Source of the DNA: Candidatus Bipolaricaulota bacterium
Lineage (GTDB): Bacteria; Bipolaricaulota; Bipolaricaulia; UBA7950; UBA9294
NCBI GenBank assembly: GCA_018817505.1
Contig: JAHITR010000021.1
Location: 1,077 to 65,076, forward strand
Reading direction: 5' to 3'
Length of the DNA: 64,000 bases
The position numbers were made by a program, and so were the translations under genes. The first letter of the stretch is position 1, and each line of letters starts with the position of its first letter. Below, piece by piece: positions 10,101 to 56,996 of this stretch. The notes beneath the pieces were generated by a model. It saw only the letters and a list, made by a program, of their open reading frames with translations. It was not told the DNA's origin and searched no databases.

Positions 10101-10381
10101 GCATATCGGCGGTAGCTGGCCAGTTGCACGTCCAGTTCGGCCAACTCATCTGGGGACGCGTTCATCATTGCTTTTCGCGGATAGCCTTCTGCATAGACAC
10201 TGGTGAATACTGAGCCTAGTGCTTCTCGAACAGGTTTGGGTGTCAAGCTCTCCGAGGGAATGAGAATGATTTTCTCACGTTGTCGGCGTTCCTCAGCTGC
10301 GATCAAGGCTGCCGTTTGTGAATCGATGTCAAGGATGCATTTGTCTGAATACGGGCTCATGTTGACTTCCATCTCCTTCAT
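7166..10381 (-). CDS. fusion protein: serine hydroxymethyltransferase (GlyA) domain + glycine-cleavage T-protein/aminomethyltransferase (GcvT) domain(s)
   Basis: The N-terminal half has SHMT hallmarks (...[32 protein letters not shown]..., PLP-fold region ...[13 protein letters not shown]...). The C-terminal ~450 aa has GcvT hallmarks (...[42 protein letters not shown]..., ...[15 protein letters not shown]...), with an extra GcvT-like segment between them. It is one uninterrupted ORF. Start chosen at ATG 10379-10381 (MKEMEV...); an alternative ATG 9 nt downstream has an AAGGAG RBS. Confidence 0.8.
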   Translation of the reverse strand: [1071 protein letters not shown]

Positions 10382-11492
10382 ACGGGTCGGGGTGAAGTCT
10401 ACGGGGTAGGTTTCTTCCTTTCCAGCAGAGTTCCGAGAGAAGGTACAGGCCGCCACTGACCAGTGAGTGCCCGCCCAAGAGAATGGGGATGGAGGAATCC
10501 CTAGCTCTCTGCGCGAAGTCAATCCATAGGGGATCGGCCATCTCTGAAATCCGAAACAGGTCGCAGGAAAACCGCTCGTGCGCTGCGGGCAGAACGCCCT
10601 TTCGAGCGAGCAACGGGCGAGAGTCGATAATGGCAGCATCGGCGGAGTTCTCAAGCGCGTGGAAGAAATCGGCGAACCTGCGCTTCTGGAAAAGAGTCGC
10701 CAGCACGGCGTGCTGTCTGTTTGCGTAGGCTTTCATCCCACGGCCTTCGATCATTCCCGCCGTCCGACATGCGACCTGCTGCTCGAACGTCTGCCATGTC
10801 GCCGGATTCACGCGCCCCACCAAATAGACGAGAGCTGTTCGTTCGATAAGCAAGGCAGTCGTCTCCCGGATATTCGGATGGTCGAGCGGCTGGGAAGCGA
10901 GAAAAGACTGCAGGCGCGAGCCGCCGCGATTGGCTTCCTTTAGAAGACATAAATCGATCGGCGTATCTAGGTCGAATTGAGACGCCAACGAGCGTGGGAG
11001 GCTGAAGCATTTCACTCCATGGTCTGAGAGAAGGAACCCGAGCCCGTTGTCTGTTCCCGGAAGCGGGAGTTGAAGCAGAAATGTCGTATCGGACATGACT
11101 GCGAAATCGCATGAGTAGTAGTTGTTGAAGAGGGCGTGGTTCTGATCGCGTTGAGCAAATCGTGCAATATCTGCCAATTGATCTTGGGAGAGAAGCGTGC
11201 CGCTACCGCTGCCGAAGTAGACTACAGCATCTAGTTCGTGGCTGCGGATGATATGCTGGAGTGTCTCGCCGAAATGGAATGGCTCGGTATCTGCAACTGG
11301 ATGGACTGAAGCGCCGAGCGACTCGAAAACTGCAGTGGAATCTTTGGAGCATGCGACAATGGTCGTAGGGACGAGCGTCTTGAGAGACTCCACAAGATCG
11401 CAGGCTGAAGCCTCTCGCGCAGAAGCAACCATACGTTCTATGTCTGACGGCCCCGCGGGCGGGTGGAAGATGACGGCGCCAGTTCGCTTCAT
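10329..11492 (-). CDS. hypothetical protein (~388 aa)
   Basis: Long ORF; start chosen at MKRTGAVIF (ATG at 11490-11492). It overlaps the downstream SHMT-GcvT start by ~50 nt. No confidently nameable motif. Confidence 0.5.
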   Translation of the reverse strand: MKRTGAVIFHPPAGPSDIERMVASAREASACDLVESLKTLVPTTIVACSKDSTAVFESLGASVHPVADTEPFHFGETLQHIIRSHELDAVVYFGSGSGTLLSQDQLADIARFAQRDQNHALFNNYYSCDFAVMSDTTFLLQLPLPGTDNGLGFLLSDHGVKCFSLPRSLASQFDLDTPIDLCLLKEANRGGSRLQSFLASQPLDHPNIRETTALLIERTALVYLVGRVNPATWQTFEQQVACRTAGMIEGRGMKAYANRQHAVLATLFQKRRFADFFHALENSADAAIIDSRPLLARKGVLPAAHERFSCDLFRISEMADPLWIDFAQRARDSSIPILLGGHSLVSGGLYLLSELCWKGRNLPRRLHPDPYEGDGSQHEPVFRQMHP

Positions 11493-11542
11493 GATGTTTG
11501 CATTATCAGTAGACCTCGTCGCGCATGGTCCTCGCACGTCAA

Positions 11543-11582
11543 CAGAAAAAGAAAGCGCCCCAACAGGATTTCTCGTTGGGGC
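11543..11582 (-). terminator. intrinsic terminator downstream of rpsR (stem gccccaac/gttggggc, then U-run on minus strand)
   Basis: 8-bp inverted repeat with 10-nt loop. The plus-strand A-tract aacagaaaaagaaa becomes a U-tract on the minus strand. Confidence 0.55.
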
Positions 11583-11610
11583 ATTACTTCAATCATCAAT
11601 GAATGCCTAG

Positions 11611-11847
11611 TTACCGGCGCAATTTCATGGGCTCGCGTTCTCCTACGTAGGGGAGAAGAGCAATCTTGCGAGCGCGGTTGATCTGCAAGGCAAGGGCGCG
11701 CTGGTGTTTTGCGCACAATCGGGTGGCTCGCTTCGGCAGTATCTTCCCTAGGCGATTCATGAACTGCTTCAGTTCTGCGGGCCGCTTATAGTCGAGCGTG
11801 AGCTTCTGCTCACAGACTCTGCATTTTCTCTTTCTACGATGAAACAT
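11611..11847 (-). CDS. rpsR: 30S ribosomal protein S18
   Basis: ...KLTLDYKRPAELKQFMNRLGKILPKRATRLCAKHQRALALQINRARKIALLPY matches the S18 core. Confidence 0.9.
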   Translation of the reverse strand: MFHRRKRKCRVCEQKLTLDYKRPAELKQFMNRLGKILPKRATRLCAKHQRALALQINRARKIALLPYVGEREPMKLRR

Positions 11848-11849
11848 AC

Positions 11850-12272
11850 TTAGAACGGAACCTCCTCCGTTGTGCTGGCCTCCGGTTGCGAACTTGAAGG
11901 TGGCACCGCAGTCTGGGCTGACGCTTCACCTGATCGAGGAGCACCACCAAGAAACTGGACGGTTGATGCCACGACCTCGACGACTTTCTTGCGCTCGCCT
12001 TCTGCATTTTCAAATGAATCGATGCGTAGGCGTCCTTCAATAGCGACGGAGCGCCCTTTGCTCAAATAGTTCGCACAATTCTCGGCCTGGGATCCCCAGG
12101 TGACAATGGGAACGAACGTTGTTTCTTCTTGCAGTTGCCCGGTTGCGTTCTTGTACTGGCGGTTCACGGCGATGTTGAATTTTGTTCGTGCTGTGCCGCT
12201 TGGCGTGTAACGAAGTTCGGGATCTGCTGTCAAGTTGCCGATCAAAATTACACAATTCAAGCTGGCTGCCAT
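11850..12272 (-). CDS. ssb: single-stranded DNA-binding protein
   Basis: The OB-fold N-terminus (NCVILIGNLTADPELRYTPSGTARTKFNIAVNR...) and acidic C-terminal tail ending ...EEVPF are SSB hallmarks. It lies between rpsF and rpsR, the classic arrangement. Confidence 0.9.
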   Translation of the reverse strand: MAASLNCVILIGNLTADPELRYTPSGTARTKFNIAVNRQYKNATGQLQEETTFVPIVTWGSQAENCANYLSKGRSVAIEGRLRIDSFENAEGERKKVVEVVASTVQFLGGAPRSGEASAQTAVPPSSSQPEASTTEEVPF

Positions 12273-12283
12273 GGCCTCTCCAG

Positions 12284-12568
12284 TTACGCTCGGGAAATGG
12301 TCTGATATCGAAGAATCTCTTCGTCGATATTCAAGCGTTCCTCAATCGTTTTCACATTCTCTGGCGCTAGTTGGAATTCCGCAAGACCGTAGTATGCGTC
12401 CGTGCAATGCCTGATCGGGTAAGCCAGCACGCGCTTTCCCCAATCTTCCACTTTGCCCAACTGACCACCATTGTCTGTGATCAGTGAGTGAATGCGCTCG
12501 ATTTTGGCCGCTCGATCATCATCCGATAGATCCGCGCGGATTACGTATACGATTTCGTACTCTCTCAC
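12284..12568 (-). CDS. rpsF: 30S ribosomal protein S6
   Basis: MREYEIVYVIRADLSDDD...GKVEDWGKRVLAYPI... is the S6 signature. First gene of the rpsF-ssb-rpsR operon. Confidence 0.9.
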   Translation of the reverse strand: MREYEIVYVIRADLSDDDRAAKIERIHSLITDNGGQLGKVEDWGKRVLAYPIRHCTDAYYGLAEFQLAPENVKTIEERLNIDEEILRYQTISRA

Positions 12569-12849
12569 TCTAACACCTCGTCCTTAATCTGCCGGTAACT
12601 TTATCTGGGCGCAGAAGCTAAGTCAAATCGGGGGAATAGCGTCTCAGTCGGCGTTACCCTGTCTCACGTGCAGATAGGATCCGAATGAGCCGTCGACTTC
12701 ATCCCATGATAGAGAAAGTGTACCCAAAGCGCCTTCGGATGTCATCCTTGGGCCCCTTTTGCATCTTTGGCGAAGCCTCTGAGCATGTATGTAATAGTAT
12801 CCGTTTGTAATGCAACCTTCAAGAAAACTGCAAGTAACCTGCAAAAAAC

Positions 12850-12878
12850 TTGACCATCTTTCTATTTTGCCTTATTAG
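12850..12878 (+). promoter_or_regulatory. candidate sigma70-like promoter (TTGACC-N16/17-TTATTAG) upstream of the small-peptide array
   Basis: Sequence pattern only, in the divergent intergenic region between rpsF and the peptide array. Confidence 0.3.
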
Positions 12879-13022
12879 TAGCGAAGTTAGACATAGGCGT
12901 TGGGCGCGGAGAAATTCGGCGATTCCATCGAATTCAAGAGCGGTAGGGGACGTCATTGAGTGCGGAATCAGCCTTGCGCATCGAGAGGTCAAGAAGCGGA
13001 AGGACAAATGGGAGGAAGAAAC

Positions 13023-13175
13023 ATGAAATGGGGCGGATACAACAGAAAAGGAGAAGAGAAAATGAAGAAGCTGTTTGGCGGGAAGGCGATGTACTACTTG
13101 CTGACGATCGCGACATTGATCCTTGTGTTGGCCGAGAACATCAAATGGCGACCGGATCCGCCGACCGGTGGATAG
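13023..13175 (+). CDS. small single-TM peptide, paralog 1 (MKWGGYNRKGEEKMKKLFGGKAMYYLLTIATLILVLAENIKWRPDPPTGG)
   Basis: GGAGGA RBS 6 nt before ATG. It is one of four tandem paralogs, and differences among copies in the hydrophobic core are almost all synonymous. Confidence 0.6.
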   Translation: MKWGGYNRKGEEKMKKLFGGKAMYYLLTIATLILVLAENIKWRPDPPTGG

Positions 13176-13210
13176 ACAGACCAACAAGAATTTGAAAAGG
13201 AGGAAGCGAT

Positions 13211-13363
13211 ATGAAATGGGGCGGATATAACCGAAATGGTGAGAAGAAGATCCGAAAGCTGTTCAGCGGAAGGGCGATGTACTACTTGCTGACGATCGCG
13301 ACATTGATCCTTGTACTGGCTGAGAACATCAAGTGGAGTCCGGATCCGCCGACTGGTGGATAG
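13211..13363 (+). CDS. small single-TM peptide, paralog 2 (MKWGGYNRNGEKKIRKLFSGRAMYYLLTIATLILVLAENIKWSPDPPTGG)
   Basis: AAAGGAGGAAG RBS. The N-terminal charged region diverges, while the TM core and C-terminal PDPPTGG are identical to the other copies. Confidence 0.6.
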   Translation: MKWGGYNRNGEKKIRKLFSGRAMYYLLTIATLILVLAENIKWSPDPPTGG

Positions 13364-13394
13364 AGAAGTCGTAGGCATAGAAGGAGCAACGGCC

Positions 13395-13547
13395 ATGAAA
13401 TGGGGCGGATACAACAAGAAGGGAGAAGAGAAAATGAAGAAGCTGTTTGGCGGGAAGGCGATGTACTACTTGCTGACGATCGCGACATTGATCCTTGTAC
13501 TGGCTGAGAACATCAAATGGCGACCAGATCCACCGACCGGTGGATAG
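13395..13547 (+). CDS. small single-TM peptide, paralog 3
   Basis: AAGGAG RBS; the protein matches copy 1 except for one R-to-K change. Confidence 0.6.
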   Translation: MKWGGYNKKGEEKMKKLFGGKAMYYLLTIATLILVLAENIKWRPDPPTGG

Positions 13548-13578
13548 AGAAGTCGTAGGCATAGAAGGAGTAACGGCC

Positions 13579-13731
13579 ATGAAATGGGGCGGATACAACA
13601 AGAAGGGAGAAGAGAGAATGAAAAAGCTGTTTAGTGGGAAGGCGATGTACTACTTGCTGACGATCGCGACATTGATCCTTGTACTGGCTGAGAACATCAA
13701 ATGGAGTCCGGATCCGCCGACCGGTGGATAG
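13579..13731 (+). CDS. small single-TM peptide, paralog 4
   Basis: AAGGAG RBS; three conservative substitutions relative to copy 3. Confidence 0.6.
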   Translation: MKWGGYNKKGEERMKKLFSGKAMYYLLTIATLILVLAENIKWSPDPPTGG

Positions 13732-14072
13732 TAGGATCGCAGAATTGCTGACGGGAAGCTTCTGGACCAGCGATCTGCTCAATTGAGAATGTGGAGCAGG
13801 GCAAGGTTGTTGTGCTGCCTGCGGAAGCTCGAAGAGTGAAACTGATCCCGCTTTCGGTCACTGCAATACTCATACAGCTGTAACCAGTCGTCATAACAAT
13901 GGGTGATGTCCGCAACAACGATAGATTGTGCTTGATGTATAAGCTGCCCCGAATGAGAAGAAGCACGCTCTTGCAGATGGAATAGGGTTTGGGTATCGAT
14001 CGGATATTGGCGAAGTGCTAGTCGAGGACCAAACTTCACAGTAAGATTGTGCTCTCTGACCTAAGGGGACTG

Positions 14073-15386
14073 ATGAGACGAATGAGTGTTGCTTACGTAT
14101 ATGTTGCGGCTCTGGCGGTGTCAGCCCTGCTATCCCTAGCACACTCAGTTACGCACTGCGCTTTCGCGGGGGGGGGAACAGTCTCCCTTTTTGTAGCGTT
14201 TGTGATATTGGCAGTCCTTGCCGAAGTCTATGCGACACGGGTCCCAGCCTACAAATGGGAAATCTCAAGCTCCATCGCCATCTGCCTTGCATCTGTCTTT
14301 ATCCTTGGCCCGTATCTTGCAGTTATCTCAGTATTCCTTTCTTCTCTCATTTCAGAACTGCTTTTGCGATTGAATTCAGAAAAGCGAGGATCATCCGGGG
14401 TTATTCAAATAGTGTTCAATGTCAGTCAACTTGTGATTACCGTAACATTGGCTGGCCTGTTTCTCAAAGCGTTCAATCGCGAAACGTTGCAGTTGATTCA
14501 TCCCGCAGACATAGGACTTGCTGTCGCAGTCTTCGCCATTTACTTGGTTTCCAATTTGTCCTTCGTAACGGGTGTCATTGCGATAACAGAGAACAAATCA
14601 TTCCTCCAGTCTCTCGGCCGGAGCATCCGGCAGTTTTTCATGCAATACCTGGCTTTGTGCGTATCCGCTCTTCTGTTGACCTCTCTATATACGATCTCAG
14701 TTTGGCACGTCTTCCTGGCCCTGTTCCCGCTTACGTTGGTGCATATCTCCTTTAGGGGATATGTGAAATTGCAGACCGAGGCACGAAACACCTTCGAACG
14801 AATTTCACAATTGCTCGATGCCCGCGATCACTACACGGCCGTTCATTCCGTAGAGGTAGCTGAATTGGCGGTCAGGATTGGACAGGAGATGGGACTCAGT
14901 CAGCGTGAGATTGAGCAGATTGACGTGGGCGCTCGAGTCCACGATATTGGGAAGGTTGCGATTCCGGATTCCATCCTCCTCAAGCCGGGGAAATTGACTG
15001 AAGAAGAGTGGGTCACGATGCGTGAACACCCGGTGACGAGTGCAGAGCTGATTGCCGGAATCGAAATTTATGCGTCCGTCTCCGAGGCCGTTCGGCACGA
15101 GCATGAGCGATGGAACGGAACGGGATATCCTGATGGCTTGAAGGGCGAGCAAATACCTCTGATATCCCGGATTATTGCTGCAGCCGACATCTATAACGCA
15201 CTAACGACGGATCGCCCCTACCGAAAGGCGTTCAGTTTGGAAAAGACGAGACAGATGATTGAGGACATGACTGAGATCGACTTGGATCCGGATGTTGCCT
15301 CGGCACTGATTCGCGTCATTGACGCGATGCCTGCAGAGCCAGCGGTGCCTAGGATAATCCCGACACCCGAGAGCGTGGAGGCGTAG
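14073..15386 (+). CDS. membrane-integral HD-GYP domain c-di-GMP phosphodiesterase (N-terminal polytopic 5-7 TM domain)
   Basis: The C-terminal half carries ...HDIGKVAIPDSIL... and ...HEHERWNGTGYPDGL... (HD and GYP motifs). The N-terminal ~230 aa is strongly hydrophobic. The ATG at 14073 has an AAGGGGA RBS; a GTG at 14049 and an ATG at 14082 are alternatives. A G9 homopolymer lies at 14168-14176. Confidence 0.8.
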   Translation: MRRMSVAYVYVAALAVSALLSLAHSVTHCAFAGGGTVSLFVAFVILAVLAEVYATRVPAYKWEISSSIAICLASVFILGPYLAVISVFLSSLISELLLRLNSEKRGSSGVIQIVFNVSQLVITVTLAGLFLKAFNRETLQLIHPADIGLAVAVFAIYLVSNLSFVTGVIAITENKSFLQSLGRSIRQFFMQYLALCVSALLLTSLYTISVWHVFLALFPLTLVHISFRGYVKLQTEARNTFERISQLLDARDHYTAVHSVEVAELAVRIGQEMGLSQREIEQIDVGARVHDIGKVAIPDSILLKPGKLTEEEWVTMREHPVTSAELIAGIEIYASVSEAVRHEHERWNGTGYPDGLKGEQIPLISRIIAAADIYNALTTDRPYRKAFSLEKTRQMIEDMTEIDLDPDVASALIRVIDAMPAEPAVPRIIPTPESVEA

Positions 15387-15394
15387 CGGTATCT

Positions 15395-15967
15395 ATGTTC
15401 TTCTTGTATGTCATCCCCGTTGGGCTCCTAATCGGTCTTCTTGCCAGAGGAAAGATCGCCAATCTTGGAAAGCTCCCACTGAGGTGGGTGGGCCTGCTGT
15501 TTCCTGCCTTATTGATCCAACTCCTGATCTTCCCTGTGTTTACGTCTGACGCGCTCATCCCGTTTGCGACTGCGCCACTTCATATCCTTTCGTATGCGTT
15601 GCTCGCGGTATGGATCCTCGCCAACTGCCGACTTCTGCCAATCGTTACTCTGGGCTTGGGAGCGGTGTGTAATTTCGCCGTCCTTGCTGCAAATGGCGGA
15701 TTCATGCCCGCATCGGCCAATGCATTGCAACAGGCAGGTCTATCGAATCTTGCCGGGACGCTAACCCGCGAGGGGGCCTACTCCAACCTGGCTCTGATGT
15801 CCGCAGACACGCGATTGAACCTCCTTGGCGACCTCCTCTATGTTCCGAAATGGATTCCTCTCTCTGCAGCCTTTAGTATCGGAGATCTCTTGATCGCCCT
15901 GGCACTTGTCTGGTTGATCGTGAAAGGCATGAGAATCAATGAAAAACGACCTATCGAAGCTGCTTAA
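15395..15967 (+). CDS. polytopic membrane protein of unknown function (DUF5317-like)
   Basis: Six or more hydrophobic segments and no catalytic motifs. It starts 8 nt after the HD-GYP gene and overlaps the next gene by 29 nt. Confidence 0.55.
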   Translation: MFFLYVIPVGLLIGLLARGKIANLGKLPLRWVGLLFPALLIQLLIFPVFTSDALIPFATAPLHILSYALLAVWILANCRLLPIVTLGLGAVCNFAVLAANGGFMPASANALQQAGLSNLAGTLTREGAYSNLALMSADTRLNLLGDLLYVPKWIPLSAAFSIGDLLIALALVWLIVKGMRINEKRPIEAA

Positions 15968-18047
15968 GCCACAGTCTGTAGCTGTTGTTGGAGCCAGCCC
16001 CAACGAGGGCTCTGTTGCGGGCACGATCTTGCAGAATCTGCACTCCTGCGGATTCTCCGGAGACATCTTCCCGGTCAATCCTAAATACGAAACCGTTTTT
16101 GGGTTTGCCTGCTACCCTTCGATCAGCGCACTACCAGACACGACTGACCTTGCCATCTTGGCAATCAACCGAAGCCTGGTTCTCCAAGCAGTTGAAGAGT
16201 GTGGAGAACGGGGCATTCGTCATCTTGTGATTGTTACTGCCGGGTTCAAGGAAGCCGGGGCAGAAGGCGAACGATTGGAGTCGGCATTGCGGGATTTGAT
16301 CGCTCGCTATGATCTGAATGTTGTAGGACCCAATTGCATGGGCATCATTCACCGCTCTGAAGGCATCAAGCTCAATGCTTCTTTCTCTCGCTGGTTCCTT
16401 ACTGGTGGAGGCATCGGATTCATTTCACAAAGCGGATCACTCGGGGAGACGCTCCTGGAGACCTTTGAAGACGCAGGGCTGGGTGTCTCGACCTTCATTA
16501 ATCTAGGCAATCGAGCCGGGTTGACTGAAAACGACTTCTTGCGGTTGCTTGCAGACGACCCTCAGTGTCGAGCGATCTTCTTGTATCTAGAGAGCTTCGC
16601 AGAGCCCCACGAATTTCGCCGAATCCTTGAGTCCATTCATCAAGACAAGCCTGTCGTCGTGCTCAAAGCAGGCAGGACCAAAGCGGGAGCAGCTGCTGTA
16701 GTGTCCCATACAGGCTCGCTGGCCAGCCCAGATGCCATTGTTGATGCCTTCCTTCGCCAGTGTGGGGCCTTGCGTGTGACGACAATCGACGAGGCACTCA
16801 GTGCACTGCGTGTGCTACAGAAGGGAGTTTTGCCTGCAGGAAACCGAGTGGTCATTCTGACCAATGCAGGTGGTGCGGGGATCATAGCTGCCGACGCGTG
16901 TGAGCGCCTGAGCATTGATGTTCCTGCGCTCTCAGATGAAGTCCAGATGAAGCTTCGCGAGTTCCTTCCTCCAGAAGCTGGATACGGCAATCCGGTGGAC
17001 ATGATCGCCACGGCAAGCAGCGAACACTACGAAAAGGCCTTGGAGACAACGCTGCCTTCAGTGGACGCAGCCATTGTTATCTTTAGACCCCCGATGGTTT
17101 ATCACGAGCCTGTGGAGAATGTGGCCGACGGTATCTTGAGGGTTCTCGCGAAGATGCCGACCAAGCCCGTTTTGGTTTGCACGTTGAGTCGCAGCGATAT
17201 GGTGACTCCGCTTGTCAAACGTCTGCAAGAGCAATGGATCCCCAGCTACGTGATGCCCGAGACTGCAGTCAGTGCAGTCGACGTACTGTGTCGCGTGAAG
17301 GCGCTGGAAGTGGAAGCTCAGTCCGCCAATGAGGCTTACTCCACGGCGAATGGCCGGGCGATTGCGGGCCAAATTCTTGAGCAAGCAGCGGCTGAAGGAA
17401 GAACTGGTTTGAGCTTTGGTGAAGGCGCAGAGATTCTGGCTGCCTATGGTCTCTCTGTTTGTCCCTTTGCCTACATTGAGTCACTGGAAGACGGTATTGT
17501 ATTCCTCAAGCAAGCGTGCGGGCCGATCGTTCTCAAGATTGACTCCCCCCAGCTCTTGCATCGATTCGAGGCCAATGCCGTGATCACGGACATTGAAACA
17601 AATGGCGGACTCGTCGAAGCCTTCTTGCAGTTGCGTGAGACAATTGATCACCTTGGAATGGCCGACGCGCGGATTCTTGCGCAGAAGATGTTGGCCGGAC
17701 GAGAGCTAATCATTGGATTGGATCGAGATCCCTCATTTGGGCCGGCCATCATGTTTGGCATTGGCGGAACATTGGTTGAGGCGCTACGCGACGTTTCTTT
17801 CGGTGTGTCGCCTATCTCTCAATCCGAAGCCGAAACGATGATTCGATCGATTCGGGCATTCCCCCTATTGCAGGCGTTTCGCGGACAACCGGCTGTCGAC
17901 CTTGAATCACTTGCGGATATCATCACACGACTGGGTCAATTGGCCACGGACTGCCCGAACATCGCTGAACTGGACCTCAATCCTGTTATCGCGACAACAC
18001 AGGGAACCTACGCCGTGGACATTCTGTTTCGAGTTGCCTCTTCGTAG
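15939..18047 (+). CDS. acetate/acyl-CoA ligase (ADP/NDP-forming), fused alpha-beta subunits (CoA-binding + ligase-CoA + ATP-grasp)
   Basis: The N-terminal CoA-binding Rossmann signature (...PQSVAVVGASPNEGSVAGTI...), ...VGPNCMGII... and a C-terminal ATP-grasp region match the ~700-aa fused architecture. Confidence 0.8.
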   Translation: MKNDLSKLLKPQSVAVVGASPNEGSVAGTILQNLHSCGFSGDIFPVNPKYETVFGFACYPSISALPDTTDLAILAINRSLVLQAVEECGERGIRHLVIVTAGFKEAGAEGERLESALRDLIARYDLNVVGPNCMGIIHRSEGIKLNASFSRWFLTGGGIGFISQSGSLGETLLETFEDAGLGVSTFINLGNRAGLTENDFLRLLADDPQCRAIFLYLESFAEPHEFRRILESIHQDKPVVVLKAGRTKAGAAAVVSHTGSLASPDAIVDAFLRQCGALRVTTIDEALSALRVLQKGVLPAGNRVVILTNAGGAGIIAADACERLSIDVPALSDEVQMKLREFLPPEAGYGNPVDMIATASSEHYEKALETTLPSVDAAIVIFRPPMVYHEPVENVADGILRVLAKMPTKPVLVCTLSRSDMVTPLVKRLQEQWIPSYVMPETAVSAVDVLCRVKALEVEAQSANEAYSTANGRAIAGQILEQAAAEGRTGLSFGEGAEILAAYGLSVCPFAYIESLEDGIVFLKQACGPIVLKIDSPQLLHRFEANAVITDIETNGGLVEAFLQLRETIDHLGMADARILAQKMLAGRELIIGLDRDPSFGPAIMFGIGGTLVEALRDVSFGVSPISQSEAETMIRSIRAFPLLQAFRGQPAVDLESLADIITRLGQLATDCPNIAELDLNPVIATTQGTYAVDILFRVASS

Positions 18048-55319: not shown

Positions 55320-56996
55320 GTGACAGCCAAGAGCGAGTACCAACATTCGGATAGTCTTATAGAGAATGCGCTGAATGGCATTTATCAGTGCAACGAGGAT
55401 GGCGCATTCCTGTCAGTCAATGCGGCACTGGCGAGGATGCTCGGGTATGCATCCTCGGATGAGCTTGGCAGCGAGCAATTTCAAACGCTCCTAGCATCAG
55501 CCAAGGAAGCGGATATTGTCACGCATGGACTGCGAAGTAGTTCAAATCTGGTGGGCATGGAAGTGACGCTCAAGCCCAAAGAAGGACCGATGGTTCAAGC
55601 CGTGCTCAATGGCCGTTGGGTGGAGCGCGACGGAACGGGGAATGACCCGTATCATGAGGGCATCCTAACCGATATCTCGCATCTCAAGCGCCAAGAGGAA
55701 GAACTGCTTCACCTGGCTACGCATGACCCACTCACTGGATTGCACAACCGGCGGGAATTCAATGCCATCTTCGAGCGTCATTTGTCTCGGGTTCGGCGCT
55801 ATGGAGACGCTGGCGCATTGTTGTGGATGGATCTCGACGGCTTCAAACAAATCAACGATAGCCTGGGGCACAACGCGGGCGACGAGCTTTTGTCTAGCAT
55901 CGCTCATCGAATGAAGGCGACGGTTCGTGATTCAGACGTCGTGGCTCGACTGGGTGGAGATGAATTTGCTGTGCTCTATCCCAATGTCGATGAAGCCCAG
56001 GCGAAACTAGCTGCCGGACGACTCTTGGATGCCATTCGCAAACACTCAGTGGTCATCGAAGGCCAGATTCTTCGGTCGACGTCCAGCATGGGCGTTGTGC
56101 TGTTTCCTGAACATGGGAATTCAGCTTCTGAGTTGTTCCTGAAGGCCGACATGGCCATGTATCGCGCCAAGGCTTCGGGGCGCAATCGCATCACCATGTA
56201 CTCGTACAGCGATGAAAAGGTAGAGAACCCCGAATCACGCATTGACTGGCTGCGAGTCATTCGCGAGGCACTGGAGAATGACAGCTTTGTGCTGTATGCC
56301 CAGCCAATTCTCGATCTCAAGACCAATCGCATCGTTCGATATGAGATCCTGCTTCGACTGAGGGACCAAGCAGGAAACTTGATCCCTCCTGGCGCATTCT
56401 TGGACGTGGCTGAACAATTTGGCTTGTCTGGGGATATTGACCGCTGGGTACTGCGCAAGGTGATGGACGTTCTCGGAGATGCTTCTTTGGGCGATGACTT
56501 GTCATTTGCTGTCAATCTCTCTCCGCGATCGCTCACGGATCCTGAGCTCCTGGCGATGGTGACGGGCAAAGAGTCGCTTACGATTATTGGTCCCGTCCGC
56601 CTTGTGCTGGAGATTACTGAAAGCGCTGCGATCTACAACATTCACGTCGCCAAGGATTTCTTGCGAACGTTGAGAACTCAGGGGTACGAGTTCGCACTAG
56701 ATGACTTTGGCAAAGGATTCTCGTCGTTCTATCAGCTGAAGAACTTGGACGTCGATTACCTGAAAATTGACGGTAGTTTCGTCCGCAATCTCAGCAAGGA
56801 TCCAGTAGACAAGCACCTCGTGACGGCGATGGTTACGCTTGCGGGCAGTCTGGGTAAGCAAACGATTGCGGAATTTGTCGAAGATGAAGAAACGCTGGAG
56901 ATACTTCGTTCGATCGGAGTCGATTGCGCTCAAGGATTCTACATCGGTCGGCCGAGCCCACTGGATGGAATTCTCGAAGATCTACGCAATGCTTGA
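55320..56996 (+). CDS. PAS-GGDEF-EAL protein (diguanylate cyclase/phosphodiesterase)
   Basis: GTG start with a GAGGAGG RBS. A PAS region (...LIENALNGIYQCNEDGAFLSVNAALARMLGY...) is followed by a GGDEF domain (...RLGGDEFAV...) and an EAL domain (...EILLRL..., ...LVLEITES..., ...DDFGKGFSSF...). Confidence 0.85.
   Translation: MTAKSEYQHSDSLIENALNGIYQCNEDGAFLSVNAALARMLGYASSDELGSEQFQTLLASAKEADIVTHGLRSSSNLVGMEVTLKPKEGPMVQAVLNGRWVERDGTGNDPYHEGILTDISHLKRQEEELLHLATHDPLTGLHNRREFNAIFERHLSRVRRYGDAGALLWMDLDGFKQINDSLGHNAGDELLSSIAHRMKATVRDSDVVARLGGDEFAVLYPNVDEAQAKLAAGRLLDAIRKHSVVIEGQILRSTSSMGVVLFPEHGNSASELFLKADMAMYRAKASGRNRITMYSYSDEKVENPESRIDWLRVIREALENDSFVLYAQPILDLKTNRIVRYEILLRLRDQAGNLIPPGAFLDVAEQFGLSGDIDRWVLRKVMDVLGDASLGDDLSFAVNLSPRSLTDPELLAMVTGKESLTIIGPVRLVLEITESAAIYNIHVAKDFLRTLRTQGYEFALDDFGKGFSSFYQLKNLDVDYLKIDGSFVRNLSKDPVDKHLVTAMVTLAGSLGKQTIAEFVEDEETLEILRSIGVDCAQGFYIGRPSPLDGILEDLRNA

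Follow-up and report, generated by a model that had tools for sequence, protein, structure and literature searches.

A family of tandem single-pass membrane proteins as a candidate partner of a MASE9-like HD-GYP phosphodiesterase in Candidatus Bipolaricaulota

Four tandem open reading frames (ORFs) of 153 nt, each encoding 50 amino acids (aa), occupy positions 13023-13731 (+) of a 64,000-nt stretch of Candidatus Bipolaricaulota DNA (contig JAHITR010000021.1; this whole stretch is called the window), between rpsF-ssb-rpsR and the gene for a membrane HD-GYP phosphodiesterase. In this study, the conservation, genomic context and predicted structures of these peptides and of the enzyme were analyzed, following an earlier note on the same DNA in which the peptides were proposed either to modulate the HD-GYP protein in the membrane or to be a hitch-hiking, toxin-like cassette. 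Judged from sequence, the peptides represent an unannotated family of single-pass membrane proteins found only in Candidatus Bipolaricaulota; they appear to be the dedicated genetic partner of the adjacent HD-GYP enzyme and are a strong candidate for its membrane-level input. The control of membrane sensor enzymes by small proteins is already known; the peptide family and its HD-GYP pairing are new. The four peptide genes, an HD-GYP gene with the motif HEHERWNGTGYP, a DUF5317 gene and a candidate promoter were each found where the earlier note had placed them or close by. The core of the locus is as follows.

13023..13175, + strand: peptide gene 1; 50 aa, MKWGGYNRKGEEKMKKLFGGKAMYYLLTIATLILVLAENIKWRPDPPTGG; family profile score 94.5 bits
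13211..13363, + strand: peptide gene 2; 50 aa, with the ...IKWSPDPPTGG allele; same sequence as the public protein P0001 of a metagenome-assembled genome (MAG) of Candidatus Bipolaricaulota
13395..13547, + strand: peptide gene 3; 50 aa; R8K relative to copy 1, plus 6 synonymous differences
13579..13731, + strand: peptide gene 4; 50 aa, ...IKWSPDPPTGG allele
13732..14072, + strand: array-to-HD-GYP spacer; 341 nt, with a -10-like TAAGAT at 14041-14046 and a ribosome-binding site AAGGGGA at 14063-14069
14073..15386, + strand: HD-GYP phosphodiesterase; 437 aa, with a MASE9-like N-half (residues 1-~232) and an HD-GYP catalytic domain as the C-half

The peptide genes and their family

The peptide ORFs form a direct repeat with a period of 184-188 nt and 79-88% DNA identity, and a GGAGG-type ribosome-binding site lies 6-8 nt before each of the four. 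Their consensus in the window is MKWGGYN(R/K)(K/N)GE(E/K)(K/R)(M/I)(K/R)KLF(G/S)G(K/R)AMYYLLTIATLILVLAENIKW(R/S)PDPPTGG. Among these copies the synonymous divergence (dS) is 0.17-0.78 and the ratio of nonsynonymous to synonymous divergence (dN/dS) is 0.04-0.17, the values for gene 1 against its paralogues being 0.04-0.10; in comparisons with orthologues from other genomes, dN/dS is 0.06-0.24 and dS has reached saturation. Since substantial dS is combined with low dN/dS, each copy is individually kept by purifying selection on the protein, and the array is thus neither a recent duplication nor a DNA or RNA repeat. By this substitution pattern, the four small ORFs are real genes and not chance ORFs.

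No match to the peptides was found in Pfam or NCBIfam. A word-indexed search of 5.8 billion proteins gave 46 close clusters, a profile search of 1.84 billion representatives gave 28 clusters at 50% identity and reached very divergent members, and a profile built from divergent members gave 214 clusters. All clusters that carry an organism name belong to Candidatus Bipolaricaulota, Bipolaricaulia, Bipolaricaulis or Acetothermia. The one-genome-per-species GTDB data contain 28 loci, either in Bipolaricaulota MAGs or in MAGs with the same locus whose labels, Thermotogae or Atribacteria, are loose; among the genome records, the sole exception to Bipolaricaulota naming is a contig assigned to Candidatus Atribacteria (L029; related loci carry numbers prefixed L). 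In the searchable literature, neither the peptide family nor DUF5317 is described, and no small membrane protein is reported to act on an HD-GYP enzyme.

The family signature starts with MKW-G-G-Y-(N/S/T), a variable basic stretch with an optional four-residue insert, and K/R; its C-terminal part consists of about 19 hydrophobic residues with YYLL-x-IA-x-L-(G/A)-LLL-(G/A), followed by (E/A)(N/S/G)-x-K-W-(R/H/S)-(P/G). K41 and W42 are invariant, the most divergent members included, and the MKW start is near-invariant among full-length forms. Many members stop right at KWHG or KWHP, and the clade of the window carries 3-8 extra residues. In the AlphaFold model, computed from an 80-sequence alignment, a helix at residues 6-17 is followed by a break at G19-G20, a transmembrane (TM) helix at 20-41 (predicted local distance difference test score, pLDDT, ~90) and a disordered tail. 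The basic N-terminal third and the flanks K21...K41-W42 point, by the positive-inside rule, to an N-in/C-out topology. A cytoplasmic N-terminus (MKWGGYN and a short basic helix) would then be joined through a GG hinge to a TM helix of about 20 residues, with a short external tail anchored by Lys-Trp. Within this helix Y24, Y25, L26, I29, A30, L32, L34 and L36 are conserved at 79-97%, the poorly conserved positions 28, 31 and 35 form a single helical stripe and G/A33 and G/A37 make up a small-xxx-small motif. Such conservation reads as the pattern of a helix that packs on a protein, and not as that of a generic anchor or signal peptide.

Some array copies are decayed by a frameshift or truncation, usually the one nearest to the HD-GYP gene. 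Such copies, or variants of 33-35 aa, are present in L008 (10415-10549), L014 (1220-1354), L029 (236-535), L032 (87-197), L040 (6819-6959) and L043 (6485-6631).

Pairing with the HD-GYP gene and features of the enzyme

A total of 128 related loci were gathered from NCBI, ENA, JGI and Logan assemblies and scanned with the family hidden Markov model and the proteins of the window; a locus was counted as informative if at least 700 nt of sequence extended beyond the last peptide copy. The pairing claimed in the earlier note was borne out by this synteny check: an orthologue of the HD-GYP gene of the window comes next on the same strand in 94/94 informative loci. The arrays contain 1-7 copies, most commonly 2-3, and these numbers are lower bounds, as many contigs end within the array (L009, L012, L013, L022, L025, L030, L044, L052 and ~15 more). 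The tandem repeat breaks metagenomic assemblies; the two halves of the locus are often binned on separate contigs, and the small genes are often uncalled. The only loci without an HD-GYP gene after the array are L015 and L093, in which the remaining flank is about 500 nt.

The surroundings of the pair vary. In some loci a gene for HU stands between rpsF and the array, and the array still adjoins the HD-GYP gene. The gene for an ADP-forming acyl-CoA synthetase (ACD type; hereafter ACD), which in the window follows the DUF5317 gene, is missing beside the pair in L038/L039, L120, L122, L125 and others, and the pairing is kept. One lineage (L035-37 and L103/L118) has an array of 3-5 copies and the HD-GYP gene amid genes for purine-nucleoside phosphorylase or phosphoenolpyruvate carboxylase, a methyltransferase and DJ-1/PfpI, with no rpsF, DUF5317 or ACD around the pair. 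L047/L048, which represent the most divergent lineage, have one peptide gene and the HD-GYP gene, and the gene after these encodes DUF5317 fused to a PAS domain. Because the pair is kept where the links to rpsF, DUF5317 and ACD are lost, the peptide gene or genes followed by the HD-GYP gene can be regarded as the conserved core of the locus, with ACD and rpsF as mere neighbours and DUF5317 as a common accessory. Furthermore, orthologues of the HD-GYP protein (201 clusters) have the same narrow taxonomic range as the peptide family.

The longest ORF of the HD-GYP gene starts at GTG 14049, which has no ribosome-binding site, and the NCBI record starts at ATG 14082 (434 aa). The true start is most likely ATG 14073 (MRRMSVAY..., 437 aa), because the modal length and the N-terminus of the orthologues agree with it and AAGGGGA lies directly upstream. 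The gap between the array and the HD-GYP gene is therefore 341 nt, so that the close spacing described in the earlier note holds between the HD-GYP and DUF5317 genes (8 nt) but not between the array and the HD-GYP gene.

The catalytic half is matched by the Pfam families HD_5 (1.8e-36) and HD (7.6e-22) and carries the HD dyad (RVHDIGK) together with the HEHERWNGTGYP motif. Sequence matches were obtained to PmGH (4MCW; 8.5e-39), which is an active c-di-GMP (cyclic di-guanosine monophosphate) phosphodiesterase, to the cGAMP (cyclic GMP-AMP)-specific V-cGAP3 (5Z7C; 2e-39), to PA4781 and to DvhD, and Foldseek matched this half to 4MCW, 4R8Z and 9RBZ. The substrate-binding motifs KPG (LLKPGKL) and RxY[K/R] (TDRPYRKA), which confer specificity for c-di-GMP, are present, TDRPYR being found in 116/120 orthologues. 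The motif HHExh(D/N)GxGYP reads R-H-E-H-E-R-W-N-G-T-G-Y-P (window 15090-15130, residues ~340-353): GYP, the second His, the Glu and the Asn are kept, and Glu stands in place of the first His of HHE, the preceding position being a His. HEHE occurs in 118/120 Bipolaricaulota orthologues, and its near-invariance therefore indicates a selected, subfamily-specific variant of the metal site and not decay. The Tyr that aligns with E185 of PmGH suggests, under the published scheme, a binuclear centre and pGpG as the product. The substrate is likely to be c-di-GMP, with 3'3'-cGAMP as the alternative. A PAS-GGDEF-EAL protein of 558 aa is encoded about 40 kb from the HD-GYP locus (window 55320-56996 (+); GGDEF 3.5e-46, EAL 2.3e-68, RLGGDEF intact), and the organism therefore has machinery for c-di-GMP synthesis and EAL-type turnover. 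The literature on Bipolaricaulota and c-di-GMP yielded nothing beyond a passing mention in a review.

The membrane half matches MASE9 (PF20972) at 21.0 bits (E 3.6e-4), below the gathering cutoff of 24.3. The profile finds 16/55 orthologues at E <0.01, the best at 1.1e-5, and some public orthologues carry a precomputed PF20972 match; by these scores the domain is MASE9-like, short of certified MASE9 membership. MASE9 was described as having eight TM segments, of which two short ones form a hairpin inside the membrane, and ligand binding within the membrane was argued (Galperin and co-workers, bioRxiv 10.1101/2021.11.05.467447). No MASE9 protein is reported to have a ligand or a partner peptide. 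The AlphaFold model places helices at residues 2-28, 34-56, 67-78/80-100, 107-133, 144-173, 177-208 and 210-~232 (pLDDT 84-97), and the short helices 67-78/80-100 form a kinked pair at G79-P80, in agreement with the MASE9 description. Strongly conserved polar and charged motifs, AEVYATWIPAYKWEISSSIA and FNVSQ, lie within the membrane. The MASE9-HD-GYP proteins TM1467 of T. maritima and HdgA of S. venezuelae share the arrangement of an eight-helix input domain with a short helical hairpin and a full HD-GYP domain, but the Bipolaricaulota domain is divergent (21 bits vs 24.3) and HHE is HEHE here. The idea that the peptide is a split-off first MASE9 helix was ruled out, the HD-GYP protein already having all eight helices and an N-terminus predicted to face inward. 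Foldseek searches with the membrane bundle also gave weak, repeated matches to the S-components RibU and BioY of energy-coupling factor (ECF) transporters, at a probability of 0.96-1.0, a TM-score of 0.52-0.58 on the target and E 0.1-0.8, which are a lead only.

Expression signals and neighbouring genes

The remaining features of the locus are as follows.

12829..12849, + strand: operator-like box, from an alignment of rpsF-to-array intergenic regions of 11 loci
12850..12878, + strand: array promoter; -35 TTGACC at 12850-12855, 17-nt spacer, -10 TATTAG at 12873-12878
12568 down to 11611, - strand: rpsF-ssb-rpsR operon, divergent from the peptide array
12626-12598, - strand: rpsF promoter-like site; TTGACT, 17 nt, TAAAGT; ~220 nt from the array promoter, diverging
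15395..15967, + strand: DUF5317 membrane protein; 190 aa, begins 8 nt past the HD-GYP stop
15939..18047, + strand: ADP-forming acyl-CoA synthetase (ACD type); 702 aa, 29-nt overlap with the end of the DUF5317 gene

Between species, the rpsF-to-array intergenic DNA can be aligned in just three blocks, namely the rpsF promoter with its leader, the array promoter and an adjoining box. The promoter block, AAAAAAC-TTGACC-(17 nt)-TATTAG, spans 12843-12878, and ACTTGAC together with the -10 box is kept in 10/11 related loci, so that the candidate promoter of the earlier note at 12850 was found to be a conserved element; the position of the array opposite the rpsF promoter region was likewise as described there. 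The site at 12850 was skipped by the promoter scan, which demands a T as the sixth base of the -10 box. The box TGCAAGTAACCTGCAAAAAAC (12829-12849; consensus TGcAAA-N4-5-CATkCAAaAAAC), also kept in 10/11 loci, adjoins the -35 element on its upstream side and may be a regulator or activator site and/or an UP-like A-tract. The array thus has a promoter of its own, conserved, near-consensus and probably regulated. Transcription is predicted to start near 12885, leaving a 5' untranslated region of about 138 nt. An Rfam scan of window positions 11000-17000 (E up to 1) matched no family, and it was therefore concluded that the 138-nt leader contains no c-di-GMP riboswitch.

The spacer between the array and the HD-GYP gene measures 80-500 nt across loci and is conserved neither in sequence nor in length. 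No convincing terminator was seen in the 341-nt spacer of the window. In a search of the corresponding gaps, terminators were found in 6/59 distinct gaps vs 3.2 expected from shuffles, the clear ones being in L008, L032 and L047, and a terminator is therefore not a general feature of the gap. A separate ribosome-binding site precedes the HD-GYP gene. In most loci a -10-like hexamer also stands 25-52 nt before the gene; since TAnnnT occurs so commonly, this hexamer does not count as evidence, and an internal promoter ahead of the gene is possible. The HD-GYP, DUF5317 and ACD genes are very likely carried on one mRNA because they are spaced by 8 nt or overlap. The description of all seven features as one unit was not upheld, since DUF5317 is absent in one lineage and ACD in others, and since the 341-nt gap precedes the HD-GYP gene.

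DUF5317 (PF17248) was identified at 109.6 bits vs a cutoff of 25, over profile positions 2-151 of 151, which settles the family suggested in the earlier note; the six TM helices given there became ~5-6 hydrophobic segments. The gene is absent from L035/L103/L118 and is a frequent, dispensable partner of the pair. In L047 (2892-3938) and L048 (1722-2786), right after the peptide and HD-GYP genes, an N-terminal DUF5317 is followed by a PAS domain and an apparent GAF start, where the ORF runs off the contig. Because it is fused to PAS in these two loci, DUF5317 is suggested to be a membrane input domain of signalling proteins. The 29-nt overlap with ACD (15939-15967) implies that, in most lineages, a central acetate- and ATP-forming enzyme may be translationally coupled to the cyclic-dinucleotide operon.

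Some further observations concern the other side of the locus. A 402-aa protein with no Pfam or NCBIfam match is encoded at window 10329-11537 (-) and is found beside rpsR, at 42-76% identity, in nearly all related loci. Some lineages have a DEAD-box helicase/MZB gene and an RNase_H_2 gene inserted between rpsR and the 402-aa gene. Upstream of the 402-aa gene sits a gene for a ~1065-aa fusion of serine hydroxymethyltransferase (PF00464) and glycine-cleavage T-protein (PF01571), which is found phylum-wide beside the locus (L002 1999-5193, L003 1989-5183 and equivalents).

Possible modes of action of the peptides

The mechanism considered most likely here is that the intact peptide would pack helix-to-helix on the MASE9-like bundle of the HD-GYP protein, and that this contact would set the activity of the cytoplasmic HD-GYP domain. 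The ratio of peptide to enzyme would be set by the tandem copy number (1-7), the conserved promoter with its operator-like box and the strong individual ribosome-binding sites. Binding of the peptide to the MASE9-like domain and modulation of the HD-GYP output are put forward tentatively, at a little short of an even chance. A broader version, in which the array would supply the cognate self-made ligand of a MASE-type sensor, either as an in-membrane helix or as a released KW-oligopeptide, with DUF5317 as a second membrane input of the circuit, is conceivable but rather doubtful.

Small single-pass proteins that act on a membrane sensor are represented by MgrB and SafA (B1500) of E. coli and Salmonella, which reportedly have fewer than 70 residues, lie N-in/C-out, contact the membrane or periplasmic part of the sensor kinase PhoQ and are controlled in level by transcription. 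The likeness is that of a predicted small single-pass protein encoded beside a polytopic signalling enzyme. However, Pfam and NCBIfam searches found no sequence similarity to the peptides, PhoQ is a histidine kinase whereas the target here would be a cyclic-dinucleotide phosphodiesterase, and the peptide genes are tandemly amplified and always adjoin the target gene. Moreover, MgrB acts largely via its periplasmic part, whereas the external tail of the peptide has just 4-13 residues.

Several points weigh against control of the enzyme by the peptide. The loci were gathered via the peptide, and HD-GYP orthologues that lack a peptide would have escaped collection; only ~3 independent changes of context were seen around the pair. 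Gene order over ~15 kb is conserved across most of the phylum, and part of the adjacency could be inheritance. An orphan peptide copy in L015 (2965-3102) lies downstream of glycosyltransferase-like and esterase-like genes, and the 502 nt left on the contig contain no HD-GYP-like ORF; a canonical locus (L009/L011) belongs to the same MAG, and the orphan may be a genuine dispersed copy or a chimeric contig. Some arrays hold 33-35-aa variants that are devoid of the MKWGGYN N-terminus and retain the membrane helix and KWxP. With as many as 7 copies and a high predicted level of expression, the peptide is suggested to be in large excess over the enzyme; a regulator that acts one-to-one would not usually be. 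In addition, a crude comparison of the peptide class (LAEN or LGAS) with columns of the HD-GYP membrane half revealed no interpretable pattern: there were 4 discriminating columns without charge logic, with only 4 genomes in the minor class.

Some of these points would suit an exported signal, in which a Sec-type precursor is cut after position 37 (VLA|EN..., LGA|S...) and releases a KW-peptide of 5-13 residues, such as ENIKWRPDPPTGG or SVKWHP. The membrane domain of HD-GYP, DUF5317 or both would sense this peptide from the outside as a self-produced, density-dependent cue that feeds cyclic-dinucleotide turnover, with the copies boosting output. The layout of n-region, hydrophobic stretch and small residues agrees with such a precursor, almost all members having A, G, S, C or T at position 37, with V, L or A at position 35. 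Most members end 4-6 residues past the site with x-K-W-[HRS]-[PG], and the tail is most divergent between lineages, yet uniform or represented by two alleles within one array. The 33-35-aa variants resemble plain signal peptides, and the high dosage and regulated promoter fit a pheromone gene. Pheromones of the Phr/Rap type are similar in their precursor of ~40-50 aa with an export-like N-segment, in the potential active oligopeptide at the C-terminus, in the adjacency of the gene to that of the presumed receptor and in their lineage-specific tail alleles. They differ in that the receptor here would be a membrane HD-GYP protein and not a cytoplasmic RRNPP protein, in that the precursor genes here are upstream and arrayed, and in that the 'signal peptide' is far too conserved here, with a long conserved N-region. 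Indeed, the individual residues of the hydrophobic core are conserved (mean entropy 1.17 bits vs 1.9 for the linker), and both this and the 20-residue N-region with its near-invariant MKWGGY are atypical of signal peptides. Furthermore, L016 carries a Met at position -1, the 19 residues from K21 to K41, followed by Trp, suit a stable membrane span, and the phylum is apparently diderm with a toga-like sheath (bioRxiv 10.1101/2025.11.21.689855), which complicates free diffusion. Release of a signal is the main rival reading, but is considered unlikely.

Equally unlikely in our view is a merely indirect link, in which the peptide is an abundant membrane component (involved, for example, in membrane or toga remodelling, in stress protection or as an accessory to another complex) that does not bind the enzyme and is kept beside the HD-GYP gene by shared regulation or slow genome rearrangement. 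The stable ~15-kb gene order, the orphan copy in L015 and a predicted peptide expression far above the level of a signalling enzyme would all agree with it, as would the separate array promoter, the variable gap with its terminators in L008, L032 and L047 and the HD-GYP gene's own ribosome-binding site and -10-like box. However, adjacency and orientation are kept in 94/94 loci, also where both flanks have changed, and all other neighbours (rpsF, DUF5317, ACD) can be lost. The peptide family and the HD-GYP subfamily also share a narrow range with similar cluster counts (214 vs 201).

Type I toxin arrays (ldrA-D, ibsA-E, hok) consist of multi-copy genes for hydrophobic single-helix peptides of 20-50 aa, and the peptides here are likewise tandem, short, hydrophobic and single-spanning; some copies are decayed (L008, L014, L029). 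The hitch-hiking cassette offered as an alternative in the earlier note, here taken as type I toxin-like or bacteriocin-like membrane-damaging peptides that merely occupy an intergenic region, is nevertheless very improbable. The chromosomal position is fixed phylum-wide and vertically inherited, with linkage to a single enzyme gene, and the peptides are under strongly purifying selection. The copies have a near-consensus promoter and, each, an unobstructed, strong ribosome-binding site, with no sign of translational repression; no antisense signal was seen, as the interval 13000-13750 holds no promoter-like site on the minus strand and Rfam gave no family (E up to 1). Genes for immunity, transport or modification are absent nearby, and neither a PHROG/PADLOC-type context nor signs of mobile elements were seen in the neighbourhoods. 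Still less credible is the view that the small ORFs matter only through their translation, as cis-acting upstream ORFs that control the HD-GYP operon. They are upstream and co-directional and in some loci lie just 80-150 nt from the HD-GYP start, but the amino-acid sequence is conserved over its full length despite saturated synonymous sites, and the 1-7 copies and the long, variable gap without a conserved attenuator structure do not fit such leaders.

An array of leaders for ribosomally synthesized and post-translationally modified peptides (RiPPs) of the double-glycine type was ruled out, as Gly-Gly 19-20 is not conserved (LFSGK, LFGTK, LFGAK) and processing genes are absent. RiPP or bacteriocin partners (a modification enzyme, a leader peptidase or an ABC exporter) were absent among the neighbours rpsF-ssb-rpsR, HD-GYP, DUF5317, ACD, aminoacyl-tRNA synthetase and MatE.

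The ligands of most MASE-family sensor domains on c-di-GMP enzymes are unknown, and HD-GYP proteins form the least understood branch of c-di-GMP signalling. Here, a candidate input adjoins the gene of its enzyme, its natural variants in sequence and copy number offer an experimental handle, and a cultured Bipolaricaulota strain with RNA-seq data was recently reported (bioRxiv 10.1101/2025.11.21.689855). With over 200 sequence clusters, the peptides add a conserved, unannotated small-protein family to a largely uncultured phylum on which experimental work is almost absent. If the peptide does control the enzyme, this would be the first MASE9 domain with an identified natural input and the first HD-GYP protein controlled by a peptide. 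Cyclic-dinucleotide signalling in this deep-branching, non-motile phylum would then have an input route that is tuned by gene dosage and is possibly autocrine or density-sensing.

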